From NCBI GenBank assembly GCA_000091205.1, contig AP006502.2: a stretch of 64,000 nt of DNA; one strand, given 5' to 3'. This DNA comes from Cyanidioschyzon merolae. Lineage: Eukaryota. Numbering within the stretch: position 1 is the first letter of the stretch; each line of letters begins with the position of its first letter. A program made the position numbers and the translations under genes. Shown here one piece after another: positions 27,901-39,802 of the stretch. Under the pieces are notes generated by a model. It did no database searches. It was not told the DNA's origin and was given only the letters and a program-made list of their open reading frames with translations.

Positions 27901-28255
27901 GAACGCGACGATCCATGACACGATTCTGGGATCCGTGGTCAATGGAAACGTGTCCCCCAACCGAGGCAAAGAAATACGCGCTGGACACGTAGCATCGAAT
28001 CGCCAGTCGAGGGCGTGCGTGTAACAGGTAGACATGTGTCCATAAAATGACAGATATGTACAGATGTCACGTGACGTGACGGGAGGGATCCCCAGCAGCG
28101 CCAGCGGGCTGCCAACGCCGCGTTGCTCCGTCTCGCTTCATTGCGCGGCCTGCGTACCGGAGCGGCGCCCTTCCTGGACCTGCCGCAGTGGACACACCTT
28201 GAAACGCAGGATCCTGTACACTCCGCTCGTTGAGGTCTGCTGTACAGCGCTCAGA

Positions 28256-30280
28256 ATGCAGGCTACGCGGGCTCGAATCGAAGAAAGGCACCGATCTTTC
28301 AAGAAAGCTGTTGATTTGGACGAAGCAAGGCGAAAGCGTGATGAGCACAAGGTGGAAATCCGGAAAACGAAGCGCGAAGAGACGCTGATGAAAAAGCGTC
28401 GTGAGCACCCAGCTGTGCAGGCAACGTCTCGGGCCGGTGCTTCAGTCCCAGGCGACATGGCGGCTGTCCATGACCCGACAGCAGCAGCAGCAGCAGCAGC
28501 TGGAACTGCACGTGCTGCGCCCGCCGTCGGCGAAAACTTGCTATCAGCACCGGTTTCCGGCGAGAAAGCCGCCGGGTCACTGTCGGAGAGCGCTGTACCA
28601 GTAGAGAGCATGCTGGACGCTCCCGGTGAATCGGCCGAAGCGAGCTCCTCTCTGTTAACGACGCGTTCTCGGCAAGAAATCCTGGCAAGCATGCCAGCGC
28701 TCCGAGACACACTCTACCAGGCTGGAGCGAGCCCGGAGCAGCTGTTACGCACTGTCCGCGAGTTTCGCCGTATTCTCTCCATCGAACGAGCTCCACCTAT
28801 TCAAGAAGTCATCGAATGCCAGGGCACCGTCGAGAAACTTGTCGAGTTCTTGAGCTACGACCAGTTTCCGGCGCTTCAGTTCGAGGCGGCATGGGCACTC
28901 ACGAATATAGCCAGTGGGAATACCGAGCAGACCACAGTGGTTGTTCAGGCCGGTGCAGTGCCGCACTTTGTTCGCCTTTTGCGTGCGCCTAATGAGGATG
29001 TTTGTGAGCAGGCTGCATGGGCGCTGGGAAACATCGCCGGAGACTCGGTACAGTATCGTGACTTGGTCCTTGCTCATGGCGCGATGGAACCGCTGCTGCA
29101 GCTTCTCCAGACCCAGCACAAACCAGGCATGCTCCGCAATGCGACGTGGACGTTGAGCAATTTCTGTCGCGGTAAGCCGGCACCAGACATGCCCCTCATT
29201 CTAGCTGCCTTGCCAGTGCTCGCGCAGCTGGCTCAAAGCACAGACGAAGAGGTACTGGTCGACACCTGCTGGGCGTTGTCCTACGTCAGCGATGACAAGA
29301 CCGAGCATAACGCTCAGATCGACGCGCTCATCCGCTCGGGCGTCGTGAAACGGGTCATCGAACTTTTGGGTCACGAGTCCACTGCCATCCAGCAGCCGGC
29401 ATTGCGCACGATCGGCAACATTGTCACGGGTACGGATGAACAAACACAGGTCGTTTTGGATTGCGGGGCGCTCCCGTATCTTCTGCGCTTGCTATCATCC
29501 AGCAAACGACTCATTCGCAAAGAAACGTGCTGGACGATCAGCAATATCACTGCCGGCACGATTGAACAAATTGAATCGGTCATTCAGAGCGGTCTGATAC
29601 CGCCCCTGATCTCCTTACTGGCGAATAGCGACTTTGAGACGCGACGCGAAGCGGCCTGGGCGATCAGCAACGCCACCGCTGGAGGAACCGATGCTCAGAT
29701 ACGAATGCTCGTCCTGCACGGCTGCTTGAAACCGATGTGTGATCTGCTATTCGCGAACGATAGCAAGCTGCTGATTGTCGTTCTCGAAGGCATCGAGAAC
29801 ATTCTCGCATCGGGTGAACGCGAACGGGAACGCCTGCACCAGCCTGCCAATGAATATGCGTCGTTGGTGGAACAGGTCGGTGGCCTCGAGAGAATCGAAA
29901 TGCTGCAGAACCACGTCAACGAGGATATTTACTTCAAGTCGCAACATATTCTTCGGACCTACTTTGATGTTGAGGATGAGGACGAGATTCAGGGGTTGGT
30001 CCCCATGGCCGCCTCAGAGGGTGACGGTTTCGGGTTTGGGATAGAGCGAAACGATGCCTTGGCGCGTTCGGGGTTTCATTTCGGCACGTCGTCGTCGTCG
30101 TTGATGATGACTTCATCGGGTATGATGACCGCGTCCACGAGCGTACCTCATGCGACTCACGAAACCGCGTTCGGTGCTGAGACTGCCTCGCCCCGAACCG
30201 GTCAGGTGTCGTGGCGACCCAGCGACGACACCAATGGCGATGGCGATGACGCAACGAACGGTATGCCCATGGGCTCGTGA
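28256..30280 (+). CDS. Importin subunit alpha (karyopherin alpha). The open frame begins at 28064 but the likely start is the ATG at 28256
   Basis: There is a basic IBB domain (RRHRSFKKAVDLDEARRKRDEHKVEIRKTKREE) followed by ten armadillo repeats with canonical importin-alpha blocks (EAAWALTNIASG, QAAWALGNIAGD, TWTLSNFCRGK, CWALSYVSDD, ALRTIGNIVTG, ETCWTISNITAG, EAAWAISNAT). An in-frame (CAG)n run adds an Ala tract. A C-terminal tail of about 140 aa follows. Confidence 0.95.
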   Translation: MQATRARIEERHRSFKKAVDLDEARRKRDEHKVEIRKTKREETLMKKRREHPAVQATSRAGASVPGDMAAVHDPTAAAAAAAGTARAAPAVGENLLSAPVSGEKAAGSLSESAVPVESMLDAPGESAEASSSLLTTRSRQEILASMPALRDTLYQAGASPEQLLRTVREFRRILSIERAPPIQEVIECQGTVEKLVEFLSYDQFPALQFEAAWALTNIASGNTEQTTVVVQAGAVPHFVRLLRAPNEDVCEQAAWALGNIAGDSVQYRDLVLAHGAMEPLLQLLQTQHKPGMLRNATWTLSNFCRGKPAPDMPLILAALPVLAQLAQSTDEEVLVDTCWALSYVSDDKTEHNAQIDALIRSGVVKRVIELLGHESTAIQQPALRTIGNIVTGTDEQTQVVLDCGALPYLLRLLSSSKRLIRKETCWTISNITAGTIEQIESVIQSGLIPPLISLLANSDFETRREAAWAISNATAGGTDAQIRMLVLHGCLKPMCDLLFANDSKLLIVVLEGIENILASGERERERLHQPANEYASLVEQVGGLERIEMLQNHVNEDIYFKSQHILRTYFDVEDEDEIQGLVPMAASEGDGFGFGIERNDALARSGFHFGTSSSSLMMTSSGMMTASTSVPHATHETAFGAETASPRTGQVSWRPSDDTNGDGDDATNGMPMGS

Positions 30281-30502: not shown

Positions 30503-33500
30503 CTACCGTCGGGATACGTTCGGTGAGGCGTGCGCTGTTGCCGCTGGAGCGCCCTCCACGCGAGATCCAAAGGCATATCGGACGCGTGCGGGCGTACCGG
30601 TGCGCTTTGCTTCATTCGCCTGGCGACGCAGGAGGTCGGCGCGAGTCTCTCGCAAGACAACTCGACGGGCACTCGGTGGAGTCGGCGGGCCAGCGCTTCC
30701 GGTCTTTGACGAACTCGGCAGAGCGGTGACCGCGGAACTGGTTCGTGCGTTGGCGACGGCGACGACGTTCCCGGTGCGCTTGGACGTTGCTTTGGAGGCA
30801 GGCGTATTCGCGATACCAGTCGAAGAGTTGTTGTTGCGCTGCTGCTGCTGCTGCTGCTGATTTGCTGTTGCGAGCGGGGAGCAAAGGCCCCTGGCTAATT
30901 GCCGCTCGGTGACGCTCGTATTGCTTGTGGCGATGCCGGCGTCTGCTGGATTGATGTCGACGGCTGTGTATACCTCAGAGACGCCGTCGACGACGCATGA
31001 CACTGTGGTATCCACGGTGGTGGACGCGTCATTCGCATTGCACCCCTGCAGAGCGTGCAGCGCAGCGGCGCTGTGCCTCGTATTTGTGCCTGGCGGCGAT
31101 GCAGCTGGTGCCAGGCGAGCTGAGCGCCTGCTGTCGCGACGCCCCGCGAAGCAGTTTTCTTTGTCGTCTTCAATGTCGCTGGCGGTGGTGTCATCTGGTG
31201 GCGTCGTTGCCAATGTGCTGCTGTGCGCACGCTGCAGTACCGTACGCTGGTTGGAAACGACCTGAATGCCATTTCGTGTACCAGGCAAAGAACGGATGCT
31301 GGAACAGGTCCCGCGAACCTGAGGCCGCTGCAACTGCTCAATTTGCTTTCGGAGGAGCGCGATTTCATCGTCTCGCGCTCGGATGTCGTCCTGTGCTTTG
31401 GCGACCGCTTTCATATACTTGGCAACTTGGGCGCTTTCCACGTGTTTGCTAGCTCGCGGAAGCTCCACCTTGGCTACGCGCTGTGCGAACATCAGAGAGC
31501 TCAGCGTCTCGGTTTCGTCGGCTGCCGTTGGACTTACGTTCACGAACATGAGGGTTTTGCTGTCGCCGCCGAGCGAGTCTTGCAATAGGTACGTGAGCTT
31601 GCTATTGCGATACGGTACATGTGATTGCTTCGCGAGGAGCGCCATAAATACGTCGCCGAGCGCCGATAAACTCTTGTTGATGTGTTGTGCCTCGCGAAGA
31701 CGATCGCCTTCAGCTTCGCTACGAGAGACGCGTTCGCTACCAGCGAGATCGACGAGGTGCAGTTTGCCTTCGAGCTTATCTCCGGTACTGCGACTGACGG
31801 CCTCGATCATGATGGACACAATGAGGTGGGATCGCGACGAATGAATGTTCATTCGCGTTGCGCCCTGAGAGCGGTTCCGCGTACCCGCCTCGATGACTGA
31901 CCAGACGTGGTCCAGTTGTTCGACGGGGATCCAGATCAAGTCTGGTACATAGGGCTTGCCGTCTGGACCCAGTTTGATCTCGAGGCGGGTCTCTGTCTTG
32001 CCGGATATGAGGTCGCGAAGAGACTCGTTGTAGATCTCCAACATGCTAATTTGAATATGGCATGAAAAGGCAGCACTTCGCTCTTCACAAAGCCGGAAAA
32101 GCTCCGCCAACGCCCGATAATTGACACCCCGTGACTCTGGAGAACCGGACATCGTGTACGTCTTTCCGCTGCCTGTTTGCCCGTAAGCAAAAATGCAAAC
32201 GTTGAAGCCATCTAAGGCGCAGGTGACGAGCGGCGACGTGTCTTCGTAGATCTGCTCCTGAGAGTGCTCTGGACCGAATACGCGATCAAAATCGAAAATC
32301 TTCTGCCGTACAGCGATTTTGTCGTTATCCAGCACGTTGCACACAGTGTGGTCGTTTTCCGTAGGGAGCACGGGACGAACGCGGCAGAAAACTCGAATGT
32401 TGCCGGTAATCTCCTGGACCTGGTTGAAGAGCTTGCGACGCCAGTGGAACTCTTTCCGCCACATGGCCATGCTGTGGTCACGGAGCCGCTGGCACCGCTC
32501 GATTGCTTGAGAGAGCGTCGCGCTCTGGGTGTGAATCATAGACGCAGTCGCGTCGAGAGAGGCGCGAGCTTCCGCTCGTAGCTGCTCCAAAATGGCCTGA
32601 AGCAGCTGCGTTTGCTCCCGGGCATGTCGCAGGCGATGTGCTAAACCTGCGCGATTCAAATCGTGAGCGGGATCCGGTTGCGTGCCTTGGAATGACAGCT
32701 GCGACAGGTTCATCTTTTGCACAGCCAGCGCCGAAACGTTCGCATTCTGGGAGCCTTTGCATTCGGTGTCCAACGATGCTTCCTCGGAAAGCGCCCCAGA
32801 AGGTCTGACGTCAGACCGTGCCTGCAACATACTACGCAGTGTGCTGTTTTCGCGACGCATCTCCTCGAGCTCGTTCCGGATGCGTCGCACTGCAGCCATC
32901 ACACCGTCCTCGGAAGAGCCTAGGATCTTGCTCAAGGGGCTCATGATTCCATTCATGAGATACGAATTCAATACCTTGCGACAGAGCGTTGGAGTATTCC
33001 ACTGGTCGTTCAGACGCACCGTTACATTTGCGTCGCTCTGGTTTTCTGCGATGCGTTCGATGAGCATTTTGCGATTCGGTCCATGCTCCCATATCATGGC
33101 GTTCGTCCGCTGGTTCCGAATAAAGTACTTGTAATCAAAATCACTTGCGGCATCGGGATCTAAGGTGAAACAGTACTCCCAATCACCGTGCCATGAATTC
33201 CGATTGACGCTGCGTCGGCCGGATTCTTTCTGAGCGAGTGCCACGGGCAACACTTTTTCCATGCGTACGGCACGCTCCACGTTCCAGCAACCGAGTTCCG
33301 GGATCGAACCCGAGACATAGATTTCTTCGTGAGCCGGTTCGCTAGGTAGGTGGTGCATGGCGAGTCGAACTTTCACTACTTTGGCGCCACGGTCGTCCAG
33401 TAAAACCTCCGTCGCCATCGCTCGCTGCAATTCGATGAGGTGCTCTGTGTCACGGTTGACCCAGCGATTGACAGAGAACGCCCACTCGGTGCACGCTTCC

Positions 33501-33985
33501 CCTGGACTGCTGCAGATGCTCTCGACGGAAACCCGTTCCAAGAACCAGCCAAGTGCGTCAAGTGCGTCGGTGTCACCGGCTTCGTCCTCCAAACGCAGTA
33601 TTACCTTGTCCAGAGAGCCGATATCTTCTGCGGCAGGCACCGTGAATGACTCAGAACTCGATCTCAGGAGCGGCACGAGTTCGGGCGCCTCGGCGATGGA
33701 GGAGCTCGAGCTTTGTTCGAAACCACCACGAACCAGATGAGCAGACGTGTTCAGTGCAACCTCGGGTAAAGCGTTCAACGAACCAACTAGAGTAATATAC
33801 ACGAAGAAGCGAGCGCCATCTGGAGTTATATCACCGGAGGTCAAGGTTATACGGTACTGCATTTTCGGAAGGGCGCTCGCGTTCACCTGCGAACTACGAG
33901 CACCCTGCGACGCGTCGCTTCCACCGGCCTTGCGACTACGCTTACCCTGCGGTTTCCGTGGCGAACTCGTCTGGTTTTTGGTCAT
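30503..33985 (-). CDS. Kinesin-14 family motor protein with N-terminal PLAT/LH2-like and CBM20-like domains
   Basis: The motor starts with the kinesin-14 neck/motor junction GNIRVFCRVRPV. It has the P-loop FAYGQTGSGKTYTM, switch I SSRSHL and switch II LVDLAGSE. The N-terminus reads YRITLTSGDITPDGARFFVYITLVG...GWFLERVSV, which is PLAT-like. The next segment is EEIYVSGSIPELGCWNVERAVRM...EYCFTL...YKYFIRN...WEHGPNR, which is CBM20-like. Coiled-coil stretches lie between these domains and the motor. The C-terminal tail is low-complexity and includes polyQ from (CTG)n. Confidence 0.93.
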   Translation of the reverse strand: MTKNQTSSPRKPQGKRSRKAGGSDASQGARSSQVNASALPKMQYRITLTSGDITPDGARFFVYITLVGSLNALPEVALNTSAHLVRGGFEQSSSSSIAEAPELVPLLRSSSESFTVPAAEDIGSLDKVILRLEDEAGDTDALDALGWFLERVSVESICSSPGEACTEWAFSVNRWVNRDTEHLIELQRAMATEVLLDDRGAKVVKVRLAMHHLPSEPAHEEIYVSGSIPELGCWNVERAVRMEKVLPVALAQKESGRRSVNRNSWHGDWEYCFTLDPDAASDFDYKYFIRNQRTNAMIWEHGPNRKMLIERIAENQSDANVTVRLNDQWNTPTLCRKVLNSYLMNGIMSPLSKILGSSEDGVMAAVRRIRNELEEMRRENSTLRSMLQARSDVRPSGALSEEASLDTECKGSQNANVSALAVQKMNLSQLSFQGTQPDPAHDLNRAGLAHRLRHAREQTQLLQAILEQLRAEARASLDATASMIHTQSATLSQAIERCQRLRDHSMAMWRKEFHWRRKLFNQVQEITGNIRVFCRVRPVLPTENDHTVCNVLDNDKIAVRQKIFDFDRVFGPEHSQEQIYEDTSPLVTCALDGFNVCIFAYGQTGSGKTYTMSGSPESRGVNYRALAELFRLCEERSAAFSCHIQISMLEIYNESLRDLISGKTETRLEIKLGPDGKPYVPDLIWIPVEQLDHVWSVIEAGTRNRSQGATRMNIHSSRSHLIVSIMIEAVSRSTGDKLEGKLHLVDLAGSERVSRSEAEGDRLREAQHINKSLSALGDVFMALLAKQSHVPYRNSKLTYLLQDSLGGDSKTLMFVNVSPTAADETETLSSLMFAQRVAKVELPRASKHVESAQVAKYMKAVAKAQDDIRARDDEIALLRKQIEQLQRPQVRGTCSSIRSLPGTRNGIQVVSNQRTVLQRAHSSTLATTPPDDTTASDIEDDKENCFAGRRDSRRSARLAPAASPPGTNTRHSAAALHALQGCNANDASTTVDTTVSCVVDGVSEVYTAVDINPADAGIATSNTSVTERQLARGLCSPLATANQQQQQQQRNNNSSTGIANTPASKATSKRTGNVVAVANARTSSAVTALPSSSKTGSAGPPTPPSARRVVLRETRADLLRRQANEAKRTGTPARVRYAFGSRVEGAPAATAHASPNVSRR

Positions 33986-34236: not shown

Positions 34237-34267
<31 letters not shown>

Positions 34268-34285
34268 CGCCGCCGCCGCTGCCGT
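34228..34285. repeat. Compound (GCT)n(GCC)n trinucleotide microsatellite
   Basis: A direct read shows gctgctgctgctgctgctgctgctgccgccgccgccgctgcc. Confidence 0.9.
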
Positions 34286-34449: not shown

Positions 34450-35100
34450 AGCCAGACGCGAGAAACGTGGGAGAGGGTTTTGTCGTGTAGTCGTCTTCGG
34501 GCGCAATATTGGTTTTCCTGCGAGGCGGTGCATAGCGGGCGCTCGAACACACGATGCCATGTACTGTATGGATCGCAGACGAATTGCCTTGGAGATATAC
34601 ATGCTTTACTGAACAGTCCAAGGAGGACTGCATTCATTCTTCGATTCAGTCATATCTCAGTAGTCAGATGGTTGAGGAGCGTTCAAGGAAATAAGTGGAT
34701 GTGCGGCGAGCCAATAACCGATATTCTGAAGCGTGCTTGTGGTTCATGGCAGAGAACGACCCGTTGATCATTGTCGGGAAAGCAACAGCGATGATCGCGG
34801 CCGCCACGGGCGTCTCTGTTTCTCAACGGCTTGTTTGTTTGGTCCTGAAAACATCGGGATACTGTCCAAGAAAGATTCCTAGTTCTTTGACGGCCATCTT
34901 CCACCTAAATCGCAACTATAGTGTTCCTGGAACGTCGCGACCGGTATGAAGCACAGGGACGACGGTTTGTTTTCTCAGTCGACGATCGTTCCATCGGATG
35001 ATACGGCCGGAGCCTATATGGGTATTCGTGGGGAAGGAGCCTGTTTTATGTGCGATCGAGCTCGAGGAAAGCGACGACATCAGCATCTGTTCCAGCTGCA
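34450..35100 (-). repeat. Dispersed repeat family 2, copy 1, about 600 bp
   Basis: The reverse complement aligns block by block with 47085-47660. Shared blocks are gaatacccatataggctccggc, cgactgagaaaaca, gatcaacgggtcgtt, and cagtcctccttg.actgttcag.aaag...ggcaattc.tct..gatccatac.gtacat.gcatcgtg. Confidence 0.6.
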
Positions 35101-36796
35101 ATGGATTCCTTTGGCGGCCTCAGTTTCGCAAGTAGAGAAGGCTCGTACAACAGCATCCTTTTTGTCGAATCATTGAAGACTTTTCCCGGATGTCTCGCAA
35201 CGCTCCTCTAATGAACAACGTGTCATTTCACCAGTCCCATTGCGTTCGAGCTCTTGCCGATTGTTTTCAGGGGCATAGCTCCTTTTCGTTCGTCCGTGGT
35301 CTACTTGCTTCGACGTCATCGAGGGAGTGTTTCCTATCGTAAAACGAAGTGATCGTTCAACTGGACGAATTGCGAAAGCTTTCGGCCCGCTCAGAGCGGT
35401 GCATATTTCGTATTTCTTCCGCGAGGCCTTCTCCATCCGGGGAGTTCCCGTATCGAAGAGCTTCAACAAGTGGGTTCGTTTGAAGAAATAAAAAGCTCAA
35501 AGGTTGAGCTAGGCTGTACACTTCTGAGGGTCGAGATGGAGAAAAGCCAGCGAAGCGGTTCTGCGACAGAATTATATGCATAGCTGACATAGCAGCAGAT
35601 GGGACAGAGTGCACGAGTCGTAGCAATCCTTGTAGTGATGAGTTCAAGCAGAGGCAGGAAACGCACAGGGTTCCTCAAACGAGACATGTCAACGCCACCA
35701 TTTGTATCAGACGATGTGCGGCGCTGAAGAAGAGAGCCGGTGCACTGACGCCATCCAACTTTTTGGGGCAGCTTCTGAGGCTCGAAATCTACAAGGAGAA
35801 GCTGAAGCCGTTAGCAGCGTGTCGGTTGAGAAATGCTGGGAAACGCGTATGAGTGGATACATATGTATCATCGATGGTCGAGAGTCATTTCTTGTTCCAC
35901 TGATCATGTATATGCCCGTAGAGACGCAACTTGGGAGCTCAGAGCTGTTCGCCCTGTCCACCCGTATCCCTCTATCGCCGTTCGTATGAACAGGTAAGGA
36001 AACATCACTTTTTGTGGCTTCTTCCGTTGTATTTCATCGAGAATTTTTCAAGTGGAATGGATCGTAAAATACACATTCTTGTACGTAGCGTTTTACAGGT
36101 TCTGTTCTGGGTGCACCACGTTCAGAACAACGACTGAACGAAGGGTGCTTCAGCCACCTGCTAACCATTGCGTAACGAACTTGTAGAAGTAAGGCTCTTT
36201 TTCGCAAGCTACGAGCGACAGCATCAGCGCATGCCGCGCCATGTCTCCAACATACAGGAGCCATTCTCTTCGTCGTATTCCTGGGAGAATATCAAACATG
36301 GACGATCAAGTTGTGGTAGTACAGGCTTTCCGGAATTCACTGCTCAGCGTCCAACGATGCGGATGTTCCGATCTTTGCAGAGCATCAGAGAAACAACACA
36401 GCAGCAGCAGAAGCAGCAGAAGCAGAAGCTGCTGCCTGTGGAATTTCTTGGCCACCTTGCCACCGTCTGCTCCCGGGAGCGCAAGCCGCAACACGGCCTG
36501 CCCAGAGAAGCATCCCGTCCCGTGCAGCGCTGAAGCGTCCGCATAAGCTCTGCGCGTTTCTTGTGTATGGTGATCGACGCCTACCTGGCATCGCGTGCCG
36601 TTCATTCGGAACTCGTGTTTGATCTGGGGAAACAACCGCACGGTAAATGCCTCGTGACGGCGTCACTGGCATCATCATGCGCAAGTTGATTGTCATGGTA
36701 CCCGCATGAGTGGCGTTCCACTCGATAACTACGACAACAACAACGCCACCGTGCCTGTATCCGTCACCGGCACTCCGCGGACACGCCGCTCATCGT

Positions 36797-39700
36797 TTAG
36801 GCGCTTAGCAACATGTTGAGCGCCTGCTCAACGTCGCCACGCGAGGCCTCAAGTGCCTGTCGGCTGGCGTCTGCACTAAAGCCCATGCTCATTAGCTGGT
36901 CCAGCTGGTCCGCAAAGGAAAACGTTGGCGCCGCGGCGGCCTCGTTCGCAGAAGCTCCGCGAGTCGTGTTCCAATTCAGGACAGTTCCATCGAAGCGCAG
37001 GGGCTGGTCCATGGACGTTGCAACAGGGTGCAGCGGCTGGACCCGACTCACTGCAGTATCCGATTCGAGACGCAGTCTATCGGATGTCATCCAGTCCACG
37101 CAGGTGGCATCGAAGGCTTCATCGTCGCGACGCCATATGAGCACGAAAGCTTGCTCCAGAGCACTGGGATTTTGTCCAGCATCGAAAACTTTTTCATCGT
37201 TGTAGAGAAGCCAGCGCTTGTTCCGATAGACGTAGGCCACATAATGTCCCGTCTGGAGTGAAGCGCCCAGGTGAACCATAGCCGCCGCCAGCGCATACCG
37301 TGTACGGGAACTGGATGCCAGCGCAGCGGATGTCTCGGCTTCGGTATTTGCTGTCGGTTCTTCCTCGGGTGTCGATGCGCCGTTCGCCGCAGCCGAATTG
37401 GCGCTATCGAGTAGCCATTCGATAGCACGCTCGCCATCATGGTTACTGGCCTGAAGCGCTACTCGTGCCTGCTGCAAGGTGAAACCCATATCCATGAGGA
37501 GCCGTTCAGACGGGTCTATCCGAGTCAAGGCGCGCCCACTCGGTGTGCCCGACGCTGGCGCTTCTGCCGCTTCCATCCGACGCTCCGGAGGCAGACGATC
37601 CCATTCGGATTCGTCGACAACGAGCCAGGGTTTCATATCGAGAACGATGGTACCGTCGGCTCGCTGTTCGAGACCACGCTGCGGGTCTGAGAAGGTCACC
37701 GCGGTGGACACCTTGCGAGGCACCCAGTCCTCACCGGCCTCGAAGCGTCGCAGATGCATAATAAGAAAAGGTGGACACCGACTGGGGCTCTCTCTCCTTT
37801 CAGCCTGATTCGGATCGGCGACTCCGATCGATGCTCGACACGACGGGCACTGGAACGAGAGCAGCTCACTGGCAACGCTGAGGTCGAGGCATGCTGCCAG
37901 GGAGACACGCGCAGAGGATTCCTGGTCCTGCTCCGCGGAGATCGCCTTGCTCCTCGTTGAGTATTCAGCACCTCGGACCGACGACGCAATAGGCACGTAT
38001 AAGGAAGTTGCTTCCGTGGAGTTCATGCCAATGCGATGGCAACGCAAACATTCCGTTCGTTGAACCAGTGGAAAGATGAAGAAGCGGGCTGGGTCTCGAG
38101 TTCCTTGCCGCCGAGCCTCCGCCGTGCATCGACTAAGAAAATACTCGAGAAACTCGTGAGCGTCCTGCTGCCTTTTCGTCGCAAATTCCGGATGACCTTG
38201 CCCGATTAGGTTCTGAAACATTCGCGGTGCAATGCCCTGGGGCGGCTGGTACCGGCGCAACAGCCCTGCGCCCTCTGCTGGCGTCTGAACGTCACTTGTG
38301 GCGGGTGCAGGTTCCGGTTCGGGCGCTTCGGCCATTCTCGAAGGCGCCTCGTGATCCGGAGCTCCAGTTTTCACCGGTTTTGGCATCGTCGCGTGCTCGT
38401 GCTCATGGATTTTGGCTGCAGAGGCGCGCCCCAACTCATCGATGCGTTGTGGAGTGTGTTCACGCTTCCAGTACCGCTGGCTTAGCAAGCCATCCGCTAG
38501 CTTACGCATTTGACATTCAAAGCACTGCAGTGCACTGCCCGCCTCGCACCTCGTGTAATGGCGGTCCAAGGATTTGTTCTTGAATGGGAAGGAAAGCGCA
38601 CGAGGCTCTTGATACCAGCGATAGGGCGCAAATACCAGCGCGTAGATGCACTGGAGCACACTCGAGATATAGCACGTATTCCCCATATTCCGCATTCCAG
38701 TTGCGACGACATCAGGCGCATAGAGACTGGGATCCGTAATCCTGCGCAGACTCGGATTATGGTCCGAGAAATTGGATCCCAGCTCCTTCAAGTTAAGCTG
38801 GACATTCTGCTCTATCTCTAGTTCAATCAGGCTTTTCTCGGTCTTCTCCTCACGACGAATATCAATACCGAACTCGCTCAGATGCCGTTCAAGCTCTGGG
38901 TCTACACGGAGCTCGTCACAGACGTAGCAGTGTACGTCCGCTGTGCCGTCGGCGGTAATGGTACCGAGCTTCACCGCGACAGCATGATCCGCGTTCATCC
39001 CGCCATAGGCTTGAAAATGCTCCCATGCGTGATTCTTTCCACCGGTGCCATCAAAGTTCGTTCGCCCGCACCCAAGGTGCCCACACGAGAGACAGAGCCA
39101 AAGATTTTCGCGCAAATCGCAGGAGGAGCATTTTGCCGTGGAACGACTGAGCGATGTATCCACGTCGATTCCCTCCAAACGACAAACCGTGAGCGTGTGT
39201 TCGCACGGCTGCAACTGCAGCTCCCATGCCTGCACCTGCTCCTTGCGTGACATGGCCGCCGCTTCGTGCACGCTCTCTGCCAGCGTTATCCACGCTTCCA
39301 GCTGTGAGGCCGGGTAGGCCCCAGAGCGGAGATCCGAGCTCCAGTTCCGAGCCGACCCTGCCTCGGGCTCTCGAAGACAAGCTACCCAACACTTTGCAGC
39401 CACGTCGTAGATACCTTCCAAGCGCACTGGAGGAACTGGTGCTTCCAGGGACTCTGCACCCTGTATGGTGTAACCTTCGCTCGTTCGCAGAACTTGAGGC
39501 GCTAACGTGGCTGTTGTGCCTCGCTCGGCCTCTGCTGCATCCTTCTGAGCCTGCACCAGGGTGCTCTGCTCGAGACGATCAGCCTCCGCCAGCGGTGCTC
39601 TTCGCAAGTTCGCAAAAACTTGATGTTTCGTCTTTCGGGTGTGAAGCTCCGCGTGTCTTCGGTATGCACAAAAACACTGCAAACAAGTCAAACAAACACA

Positions 39701-39802
39701 AACACCACCAGGAGAGTCAACGTCTTCAAAACAAAGCGAACACTCCTCTTTTTCAACGCAGTCGATCGACGGCACACCTGATCTATTCATTGTTTGATTC
39801 AC
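36797..39802 (-). CDS. USP5: Ubiquitin carboxyl-terminal hydrolase, USP5/isopeptidase-T type (ZnF-UBP + USP + 2xUBA)
   Basis: A cryptic zinc finger sits at the N-terminus, followed by a ZnF-UBP domain (CSSCDLRENLWLCLSCGHLGCGR..HAWEHF). The catalytic Cys box is GMRNMGNTCYISSVLQ and the His box is GHYVAYV. There are two UBA domains (MDMGFTLQQARVALQASNHDGERAIEWLL and LMSMGFSADASRQALEASRGDVEQALNMLL). Confidence 0.92.
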   Translation of the reverse strand: MNQTMNRSGVPSIDCVEKEECSLCFEDVDSPGGVCVCLTCLQCFCAYRRHAELHTRKTKHQVFANLRRAPLAEADRLEQSTLVQAQKDAAEAERGTTATLAPQVLRTSEGYTIQGAESLEAPVPPVRLEGIYDVAAKCWVACLREPEAGSARNWSSDLRSGAYPASQLEAWITLAESVHEAAAMSRKEQVQAWELQLQPCEHTLTVCRLEGIDVDTSLSRSTAKCSSCDLRENLWLCLSCGHLGCGRTNFDGTGGKNHAWEHFQAYGGMNADHAVAVKLGTITADGTADVHCYVCDELRVDPELERHLSEFGIDIRREEKTEKSLIELEIEQNVQLNLKELGSNFSDHNPSLRRITDPSLYAPDVVATGMRNMGNTCYISSVLQCIYALVFAPYRWYQEPRALSFPFKNKSLDRHYTRCEAGSALQCFECQMRKLADGLLSQRYWKREHTPQRIDELGRASAAKIHEHEHATMPKPVKTGAPDHEAPSRMAEAPEPEPAPATSDVQTPAEGAGLLRRYQPPQGIAPRMFQNLIGQGHPEFATKRQQDAHEFLEYFLSRCTAEARRQGTRDPARFFIFPLVQRTECLRCHRIGMNSTEATSLYVPIASSVRGAEYSTRSKAISAEQDQESSARVSLAACLDLSVASELLSFQCPSCRASIGVADPNQAERRESPSRCPPFLIMHLRRFEAGEDWVPRKVSTAVTFSDPQRGLEQRADGTIVLDMKPWLVVDESEWDRLPPERRMEAAEAPASGTPSGRALTRIDPSERLLMDMGFTLQQARVALQASNHDGERAIEWLLDSANSAAANGASTPEEEPTANTEAETSAALASSSRTRYALAAAMVHLGASLQTGHYVAYVYRNKRWLLYNDEKVFDAGQNPSALEQAFVLIWRRDDEAFDATCVDWMTSDRLRLESDTAVSRVQPLHPVATSMDQPLRFDGTVLNWNTTRGASANEAAAAPTFSFADQLDQLMSMGFSADASRQALEASRGDVEQALNMLLSA

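Follow-up and report, generated by a model that had tools for sequence, protein, structure and literature searches.

The gene CMT097C covers positions 30503..33985 on the minus strand of the window, that is, of the whole 64,000-nucleotide stretch of Cyanidioschyzon merolae DNA that was analysed. An ORF scan gives a single-exon frame of 1160 codons plus stop with an ATG start and zero internal stops, the translation of which (1160 aa) is a 100% match to BAM83113.1 / XP_005539149.1 / UniProt M1VMB3 from C. merolae 10D. The BAM83113.1 record carries the annotation "kinesin-related protein, C-terminal motor subfamily". In Table 2 of Richardson et al. (2006), the 1160-aa protein stands as an EST-supported, one-exon kinesin-14 with CC and LH2 regions, and these authors class its motor as 'internal' (PMC1434745). 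According to a literature search, CMT097C is named in one paper only, as a table entry. Because the 3.5-kb ORF holds three or four significant domain matches, chance is excluded as its origin.

An internal kinesin-14 motor between basic termini

The neck and motor (residues 510-845; 31451..32458, minus strand) are recognized by the Pfam families Kinesin (PF00225; residues 547-839, E 3.9e-106) and Microtub_bd (PF16796, neck; residues 510-660, E 1e-43). With the P-loop GQTGSGKT, switch I SSRSH and switch II DLAGSE readable in the translation, the protein belongs to the kinesin superfamily, and the kinesin-14 neck EITGNIRVFCRVRP (residues 526-538; consensus GNIRVxCRxRP) lies directly N-terminal of the motor. 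All best relatives in the PDB are kinesin-14s; in a sequence search of solved structures, the motor is nearer to the cargo-type members KIFC3 (330 bits) and KCBP (292/270 bits) than to Ncd/Kar3 (249 bits). A strictly C-terminal motor is ruled out, as the motor ends at about residue 845 of 1160, leaving a C-terminal extension of 315 residues. This internal position does not bar kinesin-14 membership, because plant kinesin-14 subgroups include internal motors, and in the work of Richardson et al. (2006) the red-algal kinesin-14 falls within or next to the plant kinesin-14 clade with internal motors (PMC1434745). CMT097C is thus best explained as a kinesin-14 of the KIFC3/KCBP/KCH-like (kinesin-14B, internal-motor) type that is presumably minus-end-directed and probably dimeric.

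Animal KIFC3 (kinesin-14B) is a cargo-carrying, minus-end-directed motor. Besides being the nearest solved motor by sequence, it has the GNIRV neck motif in common with CMT097C, but its motor is C-terminal and its tail is devoid of PLAT and CBM20, whereas the internal motor of CMT097C runs on into the basic C-terminal extension. The plant kinesin-like calmodulin-binding protein KCBP, the second-nearest motor, likewise harbors folded cargo-binding domains in its N-terminal tail (putatively so in CMT097C), and the alignment to its structure 3h4s reaches query residue 370 (protein residue 875). The post-motor helix of CMT097C (residues 846-890; 31316..31450, minus strand) hence aligns with the start of the KCBP neck mimic/regulatory helix. 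The KCBP tail, however, is of the MyTH4-FERM type, its motor is followed by a calmodulin-binding helix, and the Pfam scan of CMT097C detected neither MyTH4 nor FERM; an assignment as KCBP was rejected, with only the neck-mimic-like segment aligning. KCH-type land-plant kinesin-14s share the internal motor position, but carry an actin-binding calponin-homology (CH) tail in place of the red-algal PLAT and CBM20, in effect an exchange of tails on a related chassis. No CH domain was found in the Pfam scan of CMT097C, which sets it apart from KCH proper, and the domain is absent from the red and green algal members (Richardson 2006, PMC1434745).

Upstream of the neck, the central stalk (residues 393-509), which is predicted to be helical and is given as the coiled coil 'CC' by Richardson et al. 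(2006), is preceded by post-CBM20 helices (residues 329-392; together 32459..33001, minus strand), which AF2 places at residues 333-344, 350-355 and 359-392. Within the Cyanidiales these helices are 73-95% identical, compared with 17-48% for stalk and tails in the per-domain comparison of Cyanidiales and Cyanidium. The two ends of the protein are strongly basic and disordered. The N-terminal segment (residues 1-41, pI 12.0; 33863..33985, minus strand) contains the stretch PRKPQGKRSRK, which also occurs in Cyanidiococcus P0037 and may represent an NLS-like element or an additional microtubule-binding patch. One JGI orthologue model begins at the methionine equivalent to M42, so that only residues 1-41 are concerned. 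The low-complexity C-terminal tail (residues 891-1160, pI 10.9; 30506..31315, minus strand) includes a KEN box, DDKEN, that is invariant in the orthologue alignment (residues 940-944; window 31154-31168), as well as the conserved terminal motif RETRADLLRRQANEAKRxGTPxRVxYAFGSR (residues 1112-1142; window 30560-30652), the YAFG[ST]R part of which is also found in Galdieria and Logan P0127.

A PLAT/LH2 sandwich and a CBM20 module in the tail

The PLAT/LH2 β-sandwich (residues ~43-197; 33395..33859, minus strand) has a marginal Pfam match (PF01477; residues 106-182, E 7e-5, 24.0 bits vs a cut-off of 23) that spans only part of the profile (positions 44-110 of 117); a scan restricted to the N-terminal 360 aa raises it to 27.1 bits. 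The AF2 model (pLDDT 80-93 over residues 42-200) agrees with this assignment, as do its best Foldseek matches, the N-terminal PLAT domains of lipoxygenases and the C-terminal ones of pancreatic lipases (E 1.5e-6, prob 1.0). The domain is divergent in the Cyanidiales, where the 'W-AGTDA' motif is lost and an extra loop is present at about residues 85-105; its identity within this group amounts to about 57-58% (42% to Cyanidium), far below that of CBM20. In the four non-cyanidialean orthologues in which Pfam detects PLAT, the match extends over the full profile with 35-62 bits, and in Rhodosorus P0182 and Logan P0084 no PLAT match was detected by Pfam. By sequence, the red-algal PLAT is most strongly related to multi-PLAT repeat proteins, in which 7-16 stretches match. 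The modelled β-sandwich is the fold of lipoxygenases, pancreatic lipases, polycystin-1 and LOXHD1-type repeats, but CMT097C differs from these proteins by its single PLAT copy fused to CBM20 and kinesin and, in the Cyanidiales, by the missing W-AGTDA.

The adjacent CBM20 starch-binding module (residues ~203-328; 33002..33379, minus strand) gives a Pfam match of 43.5 bits vs a gathering cut-off of 23.3 (PF00686; residues 206-311, E 2.7e-11), which rises to 47.2 bits with the tail scanned alone. Its core is modelled by AF2 with a pLDDT of 90-98 and holds a Cyanidiales-specific loop at about residues 247-264. In a Foldseek search of the PDB, the top 33 matches are all CBM20 domains (E 7.5e-9), with target-normalised TM-scores of 0.71-0.78 to the isolated starch-binding domains 1kul and 1cqy and with glucoamylase, CGTase, laforin (4rkk) and GDE5 (2z0b) among the fold relatives. 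In site 1, W234/K286/W299/E300/N304 align one-to-one with W543/K578/W590/E591/N595 of Aspergillus niger glucoamylase and are invariant in all five Cyanidiophyceae compared (Cyanidioschyzon, Cyanidiococcus, a third cyanidialean from JGI, Cyanidium and Galdieria). Beyond this class site 1 is degraded, with partial substitution in the Rhodophytina orthologues (F/K/W/N/A in Porphyridium and W/R/F/E/K in Rhodosorus) and further decay in the Logan orthologues; therefore, glucan binding may not be what the module has been conserved for. Site 2 is predicted to be only partly canonical. W269, which we take to be the equivalent of laforin W60, is invariant in 10/10 red-algal orthologues and corresponds to glucoamylase W563 in a manual alignment, a place that Y271 occupies in the gapless HMMER alignment. 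The equivalent of glucoamylase Y527 is Ala218 or a gap, and W265 may replace Y556, as judged from the alignment. With 86-88% identity within the Cyanidiales (68% to Cyanidium), CBM20 is as conserved as the motor (84-86% and 72%, respectively) and under strong purifying selection. The C. merolae module probably binds starch, although this falls well short of certainty.

The initial annotation, made from the sequence, had read the locus as a kinesin-14 motor with N-terminal PLAT/LH2-like and CBM20-like domains. All three parts are borne out by the profile matches and, in the tail, by model and fold comparison, and every motif it cited occurs in the translation (GNIRVFCRVRPV, FAYGQTGSGKTYTM, SSRSHL, LVDLAGSE, GARFFVYITLVG, GWFLERVSV, EIYVSGSIPELGCWNVERAVRM, YKYFIRN and WEHGPNR). 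A lack of significant CBM_20 and PLAT matches in the N-terminal tail, which would have spoken against this reading, was not seen.

Distribution and age of the fusion

An exhaustive search of 1.84 billion (1.84e9) representative proteins with a tail-profile HMM returned 147 matches. Among these, all PLAT+CBM20+kinesin combinations are red-algal or group with red algae, the named carriers being Cyanidioschyzon, Cyanidiococcus, Cyanidium, Galdieria, Porphyridium and Rhodosorus, and no match is a kinesin from outside the red-algal group. Orthologues with the same domain order, which the initial annotation had proposed to look for in stramenopiles, alveolates and other protists, hence do exist, but in red algae, and the DNA itself is from a red alga rather than a stramenopile or alveolate. 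Among the proteins covered, the design is restricted to red algae and conserved across those represented, and its two folded tail domains have been conserved since the deepest split within the group. Since the combination is limited to several red algae and assemblies clustering with them, the design is old and lineage-wide, and a gene-model artefact is ruled out. Such an artefact would mean that PLAT and CBM20 stem from a separate upstream gene and are fused to the motor in the ORF call only, for which the orthologue start at the M42 equivalent is the sole hint. The frame runs continuously and without stops from tail to motor, the fusion recurs in at least ten independent orthologues, including Rhodosorus transcripts from MMETSP and single-exon genes on Logan contigs, and EST support and the single exon are on record (Richardson 2006, PMC1434745); the idea of a separate gene is effectively refuted. 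The PLAT, CBM20 and kinesin architecture of CMT097C is almost certainly real. As for its description as non-standard, the literature search yielded neither a paper linking a kinesin to CBM20 nor a published case of a cytoskeletal motor with a CBM; however, CMT097C and its LH2 (PLAT) domain appear in a table published in 2006 (PMC1434745), and precomputed Pfam annotations already contain the CBM_20 match.

Starch, membranes and the spindle as possible partners of the tail

C. merolae has only five kinesins and is devoid of dynein and myosin; among the five, CMR497C is a second kinesin-14, whose motor is C-terminal (PMC1434745). The starch of red algae is stored in the cytosol (PMC8504449) and is therefore reachable by a kinesin. 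In C. merolae, which divides at night using starch made by day, amylopectin is bound by the Cm-laforin CBM20, which also labels floridean starch granules at their surface (PMC2064834). In laforin, STBD1, GWD3/PWD and GDE5, CBM20 targets a non-hydrolase to insoluble cytosolic α-glucan, floridean starch in the case of Cm-laforin, as it would in CMT097C, but their effectors are a phosphatase, an autophagy receptor, a dikinase and an esterase, whereas that of CMT097C is a microtubule motor. Tubulin of C. merolae is expressed and organised only around division, with β-tubulin foci on the mitochondrial edge in G2 (PMC8052221), and the mitochondrion, Golgi, vacuoles and peroxisome are inherited via contact with the spindle poles or the mitochondrion (PMC8504449). 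A microarray study of the C. merolae cell cycle describes 158 S/G2-M-induced genes and does not use the word 'kinesin' in its main text, which thus offers no positive evidence for mitotic induction.

On the favored reading, CBM20 would dock the motor on the surface of a floridean starch granule via its pair of aromatic platforms for glucan (site 1, W234/K286/W299/E300/N304; site 2, W269 with or without W265), PLAT would add a second contact to lipid or protein, and the motor would engage microtubules, aided by the basic terminal tails. As C. merolae has microtubules only from G2 until just after cytokinesis and dynein and myosin are missing, CMT097C would act at division. Granules, perhaps with attached membranes, could then be drawn or held toward the minus ends at the spindle poles and, through this placement, be partitioned to the two daughters like the membrane organelles. 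Glucan binding, the direction of movement, dimerisation, the identity of the cargo and the role in partitioning are our inferences. To the functional model as a whole, in which division-phase microtubules are linked via the tail to floridean starch granules of the cytosol and perhaps also to membranes, we assign a probability of roughly 45%; the tethering of starch or membrane cargo put forward in the initial annotation is plausible. More tentatively, CMT097C may represent a lineage-wide red-algal 'starch-granule kinesin' that predates the split between Cyanidiophyceae and other red algae. Working on microtubules in cells without dynein and myosin, it would position cytosolic granules of floridean starch or partition them, and it would be the first cytoskeletal motor to bind a polysaccharide cargo directly through a CBM.

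Motors are normally linked to their cargo via membrane or protein adaptors. A direct grip on an insoluble polysaccharide granule would, if true, constitute a new principle of cargo recognition and answer the little-studied question of how dense, membrane-less granules are positioned and shared at division with a very reduced cytoskeletal toolkit, which concerns red algae and possibly other cytosolic-starch lineages. Through its phylogenetic distribution, the design ties motor evolution to where in the cell starch is made. If CBM20 binds no glucan, the finding shrinks to a lineage-specific variant of a kinesin-14 tail, mainly of interest to kinesin taxonomists. C. merolae offers gene targeting by homologous recombination, good synchrony and live tubulin imaging, and the starch-kinesin hypothesis is therefore directly testable.

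The tail could instead serve membranes, with PLAT as the real adaptor that links a membrane organelle (the mitochondrial edge, Golgi, peroxisome or vacuole) to spindle-pole microtubules and CBM20, no longer dependent on glucan, co-opted for protein interaction or as a structural module. The canonical PLAT sequence in the four higher-scoring non-cyanidialean orthologues, in which CBM20 site 1 is degraded, fits this idea, as do the inheritance of organelles via spindle poles or mitochondrion, the G2 tubulin foci and the proximity of the motor to KIFC3, generally known as a membrane-cargo kinesin-14. Within the Cyanidiales, however, PLAT is less conserved than CBM20 (42-58% vs 68-88%) and has lost W-AGTDA, every site-1 ligand residue is kept in the Cyanidiophyceae, and confinement to a cytosolic-starch lineage would be a coincidence. 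We consider a pure membrane adaptor unlikely.

The chances are slimmer still that CMT097C is an ordinary spindle kinesin-14, whose motor and basic, ATP-independent microtubule-binding tails cross-link, slide or focus spindle microtubules with PLAT-CBM20 as an accessory. Its disordered termini do resemble the microtubule-binding tails of other kinesin-14s, the invariant KEN box and the NLS-like N-terminus are features of mitotically regulated motors, and microtubules are present only around division; yet CMR497C is the likelier Ncd/Kar3-type spindle motor, the motor of CMT097C is nearer to KIFC3 and KCBP, and two folded ligand-binding domains kept since the deepest red-algal split point to a specific cargo. 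Rather improbable, too, is a carbon-status sensor, in which binding of starch, glycogen or soluble malto-oligosaccharide to CBM20 would regulate the motor, for instance by relieving a tail-motor autoinhibition or by sequestering the motor on granules. Microtubule functions in the division phase would thereby be tied to the carbohydrate reserves, in analogy to the CBM48 of the AMPK β-subunit. The glucan site is predicted to be intact, the extremely conserved post-CBM20 helices could form an intramolecular regulatory interface, and division at night draws on day-made starch (PMC2064834), but a sensor leaves PLAT unexplained, and the tail-motor contact is conjecture. Regulation and cargo binding by the CMT097C tail are mutually compatible.

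Gene model and domain architecture of CMT097C

The gene CMT097C (30503..33985, minus strand) lies on a 1.62-Mb contig and consists of one unbroken open reading frame of 1160 codons with an ATG start, whose translation contains all peptides quoted in the initial annotation. Its product is identical over 1160/1160 residues to a protein of Cyanidioschyzon merolae 10D (BAM83113.1, XP_005539149.1, UniProt M1VMB3) that bears the database name "kinesin-related protein, C-terminal motor subfamily". A kinesin census, according to which C. merolae has only five kinesins and neither dynein nor myosin, lists CMT097C as an EST-supported, one-exon protein of 1160 aa with the features "CC, LH2", i.e. as a kinesin-14 with internal motor, and makes no mention of its starch-binding domain (Richardson et al. 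2006, PMC1434745). In the literature searched, the locus name occurs nowhere but in the table of this census.

In a Pfam-A scan, the motor is matched by Kinesin (residues 547-839, E 3.9e-106) and by Microtub_bd, the kinesin-14 neck/N-terminal motor model (residues 510-660, E 1e-43). The tail is matched by CBM_20 at residues 206-311 (E 2.7e-11; 43.5 bits, gathering cut-off 23.3) and by PLAT at residues 106-182 (E 7e-5; 24.0 bits, gathering cut-off 23), with up to 47.2 and 27.1 bits, respectively, when the first 360 residues are scanned alone. All three domains proposed in the initial annotation are thus supported by Pfam matches. Judged by bits and coverage, the CBM20 assignment is solid by sequence and that of PLAT marginal, as the latter match is partial and spans profile positions 44-110 of 117.

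Structure prediction recovered both tail folds. An AlphaFold2 model of residues 42-355, based on an alignment of four cyanidialean sequences, contains a confident beta-sandwich at residues ~42-200 (pLDDT 80-93), with the CBM20 region at pLDDT ~30. Foldseek matched the beta-sandwich in the PDB to lipoxygenase N-terminal and pancreatic-lipase C-terminal domains (E 1.5e-6, probability 1.0), the archetypal PLAT/LH2 domains, with which residues ~42-200 are thus predicted to share their fold. The alignment for a second run, on residues 196-400, comprised 36 sequences, some of them distant orthologues and CBM20 domains retrieved by the search of representatives described below. This run gave a mean pLDDT of 81 and 90-98 for the CBM20 core, together with a Cyanidiales-specific loop of lower confidence (residues ~245-265) and a long helix starting at residue 359. 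Every one of the 33 best matches in the PDB is a CBM20 starch-binding domain (best E 7.5e-9), including those of maltogenic amylase, fungal glucoamylases, CGTases, laforin (4rkk) and GDE5, and isolated glucoamylase and beta-amylase starch-binding domains reach target-normalised TM-scores of 0.71-0.78. In an alignment of orthologues over residues 42-400, the extra loop of the Cyanidiales CBM20 (residues ~247-264) is basic, and the linker between PLAT and CBM20 comprises ~20 residues in Cyanidiales and 60-100 low-complexity residues in the Galdieria, Porphyridium and Logan assembly orthologues.

A fusion artefact, in which PLAT and CBM20 would stem from a separate gene split from the motor by a stop codon or intron, is ruled out by the continuous frame, the EST and single-exon record, and the presence of the fusion in at least 10 independent orthologues.

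Regarding the motor class, the neck motif EITGNIRVFCRVRP and the ranking of relatives in the PDB (KIFC3 with 330 bits, followed by KCBP with 292/270 and Ncd/Kar3 with ~249) place CMT097C with the kinesin-14B cargo type rather than with the Ncd/Kar3 spindle type. The alignment to KCBP extends ~30 residues past the motor into the neck-mimic region. This post-motor segment, PRASKHVESAQVAKYMKAVAKAQ (residues 846-875; 31361-31450, minus strand), aligns with the KCBP neck mimic/start of the regulatory helix (3h4s), hinting at a KCBP-like regulatory element. Red-algal kinesin-14 adjoins the plant clade of internal-motor CH-domain kinesins (KCH), with the algal proteins devoid of the CH domain (Richardson et al. 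2006, PMC1434745). As the Pfam scan detected no MyTH4, FERM or CH domains in CMT097C, it is neither a KCBP nor a KCH.

Conservation of the tail and its putative glucan site

Using a profile of cyanidialean tails aligned to the starch-binding domain of Aspergillus niger glucoamylase (1ac0), residues W234, K286, W299, E300 and N304 were mapped to glucoamylase W543, K578, W590, E591 and N595, respectively, which constitute CBM20 site 1. All five are invariant in four Cyanidiales sequences and in Galdieria partita. The equivalent of the site-2 residue Y527 is non-aromatic. W269, invariant in 10/10 red-algal orthologues, can be equated with glucoamylase W563 of site 2 and with laforin W60, one of four signature aromatics (PMC2064834), by manual realignment with a two-residue gap, whereas the gapless HMMER alignment puts Y271 at this position.

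Within Cyanidiales, identity to the closer orthologues and to Cyanidium amounts to 86-88% and 68% for CBM20, 87-95% and 73% for the helices just after it, 84-86% and 72% for the motor, and 57-58% and 42% for PLAT; stalk and tails reach 17-48% with the closer orthologues. The match between the CBM20 and motor values indicates that selection on CBM20 is as strong as that on the motor.

Distribution across red algae

The tail (residues 42-355) was turned into a profile, which was run exhaustively against 1.84 billion representatives at 50% identity (E <= 1e-3). The 147 matches are dominated by proteins with multiple PLAT repeats and by unrelated CBM20 proteins. When all were rescanned with motor and tail profiles, the PLAT and CBM20 regions occurred together only in kinesins, with P0005 (EukProt EP00166, Cyanidium caldarium) as the one exception. 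This entry retains the tail, but its motor is read out of frame owing to a frameshift and it carries a spurious N-terminus of ~340 aa; it is an erroneous model of the Cyanidium gene that P0004 also represents. Kinesins with the domain order of CMT097C, as sought since the initial annotation, were thus found, and they come from red algae or from assemblies that group with them; the 147 matches include no kinesin from outside this group. The kinesins that carry this tail are those of the Cyanidioschyzon/Cyanidiococcus/Cyanidium group, of Galdieria partita (GJQ13818.1) and Porphyridium purpureum (KAA8492972.1, annotated "KIN-14S"), of Rhodosorus marinus (MMETSP transcripts) and of three Logan assemblies, two of them encoded by single-exon genes on 13-15 kb contigs. 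Pfam confirmed the full PLAT, CBM_20 and Kinesin architecture in four kinesin matches and detected CBM_20 and Kinesin, without PLAT, in the Rhodosorus protein P0182 and the Logan protein P0084.

In a rough neighbour-joining tree without bootstrap, the motors of all tail-bearing kinesins form one clade with monophyletic Cyanidiophyceae, a topology compatible with vertical inheritance since before the deepest red-algal split. As judged from Cyanidiophyceae, Porphyridium and Rhodosorus, PLAT-CBM20-kinesin-14 appears to be a red-alga-wide design. A word-indexed homologue search proved insensitive, as the 304-aa tail missed itself and a seven-sequence full-length alignment missed its own members P0058 (Galdieria) and P0146, so that its blanks do not denote absence.

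The bare architecture is no discovery, since the gene, its kinesin-14 class and LH2 are on record (PMC1434745) and the CBM_20 match is already in precomputed Pfam annotations. Nothing linking a kinesin to CBM20, a starch-binding domain or floridean starch was found in the literature searched. A starch-binding module on a kinesin, a seemingly intact CBM20 ligand site with motor-level conservation in a kinesin tail, and the red-alga-wide occurrence of this design hence appear to be unreported there.

A putative starch-granule motor and its genomic surroundings

Red algae store floridean starch as cytosolic granules, and membrane organelles of C. merolae are inherited via contacts with spindle poles or mitochondria (PMC8504449). 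This alga expresses tubulin and assembles it into microtubules only around division; foci are initially seen at the mitochondrial edge and subsequently form the spindle (PMC8052221). The CBM20 phosphatase Cm-laforin binds amylopectin through its CBM20 and coats the granule surface in C. merolae (PMC2064834). Combining these reports with the anatomy of CMT097C, which besides its conservation and distribution is all that is demonstrated here, the most economical model would be a minus-end motor that grips starch granules. Conceivably, CMT097C acts as a dimer whose tail holds granules through CBM20, and PLAT may add a second contact to lipid or protein. From G2 to cytokinesis, the motor could then collect or retain granules close to the minus ends of microtubules and so give each daughter a share. 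We infer binding, direction, dimerisation and the role in partitioning, which together form a specific hypothesis that can be tested in this tractable alga.

As a universal function, starch binding is most strongly challenged by the degradation of site 1 outside Cyanidiophyceae, where it is only partly kept (in the order W234/K286/W299/E300/N304, F/K/W/N/A in Porphyridium and W/R/F/E/K in Rhodosorus). Other functions are possible and partly compatible with a starch-granule motor. PLAT might drive transport of membrane cargo, which the initial annotation had named beside glucan granules, or the protein could act as a sensor of carbon status. It might also be an ordinary spindle cross-linker.

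Both termini are basic and disordered, with a pI of 12.0 (N) and 10.9 (C). The N-terminal residues 1-41 (33863-33985, minus strand; pI 12) contain the NLS-like PRKPQGKRSRK, which is present in Cyanidiococcus too; as one JGI orthologue model begins at a methionine matching M42, the true start may be M1 or M42. In the C-terminal tail, the KEN-box-like APC/C degron motif DDKEN (residues 940-944; 31154-31168, minus strand) is invariant in 4/4 Cyanidiales orthologues amid otherwise ~20% identity, which suggests cell-cycle-controlled degradation. The Galdieria tail has SKEN. Further downstream, the motif RETRADLLRRQANEAKRxGTPxRVxYAFGSR (residues 1112-1142; 30560-30652, minus strand) is 70-90% identical within Cyanidiales, could not be assigned to any known family or function, and has its YAFG[ST]R core in common with the C-terminal ends of the Galdieria protein P0058 and the Logan protein P0127.

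The window has ~57% GC and long intron-less open reading frames, and Rfam and tRNA scans over its 64,000 nt gave no matches. Its other genes are unrelated housekeeping genes (importin-alpha, USP5-type deubiquitinase, Sec1, ETF-QO, shikimate kinase, ketopantoate reductase, aldo-keto reductase and a seipin-like protein) without functional clustering around CMT097C, as expected in a eukaryotic nuclear genome. The importin-alpha gene (IBB and Arm repeats; 28064-30280, plus strand) is convergent with CMT097C, with 222 bp between the stop codons; its real start may be an internal methionine (MQATRAR…), since the longest frame begins ~65-74 codons ahead of the IBB domain. About 250 bp upstream of the CMT097C start codon, a (GCT)14.7 microsatellite (34239-34282) gives rise to poly-Ala runs in spurious frames on both strands. 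Farther upstream, ~1.3 kb (~34800-36100) of slightly lower GC (0.53) have no frame of at least 100 aa and no tRNA or Rfam match, a rather long gap given how compact the C. merolae genome is. The adjacent upstream gene shares the strand of CMT097C and encodes an apparently ordinary USP5/13-type deubiquitinase (36797-39802, minus strand) with a zf-UBP variant, zf-UBP, UCH and two UBA domains.
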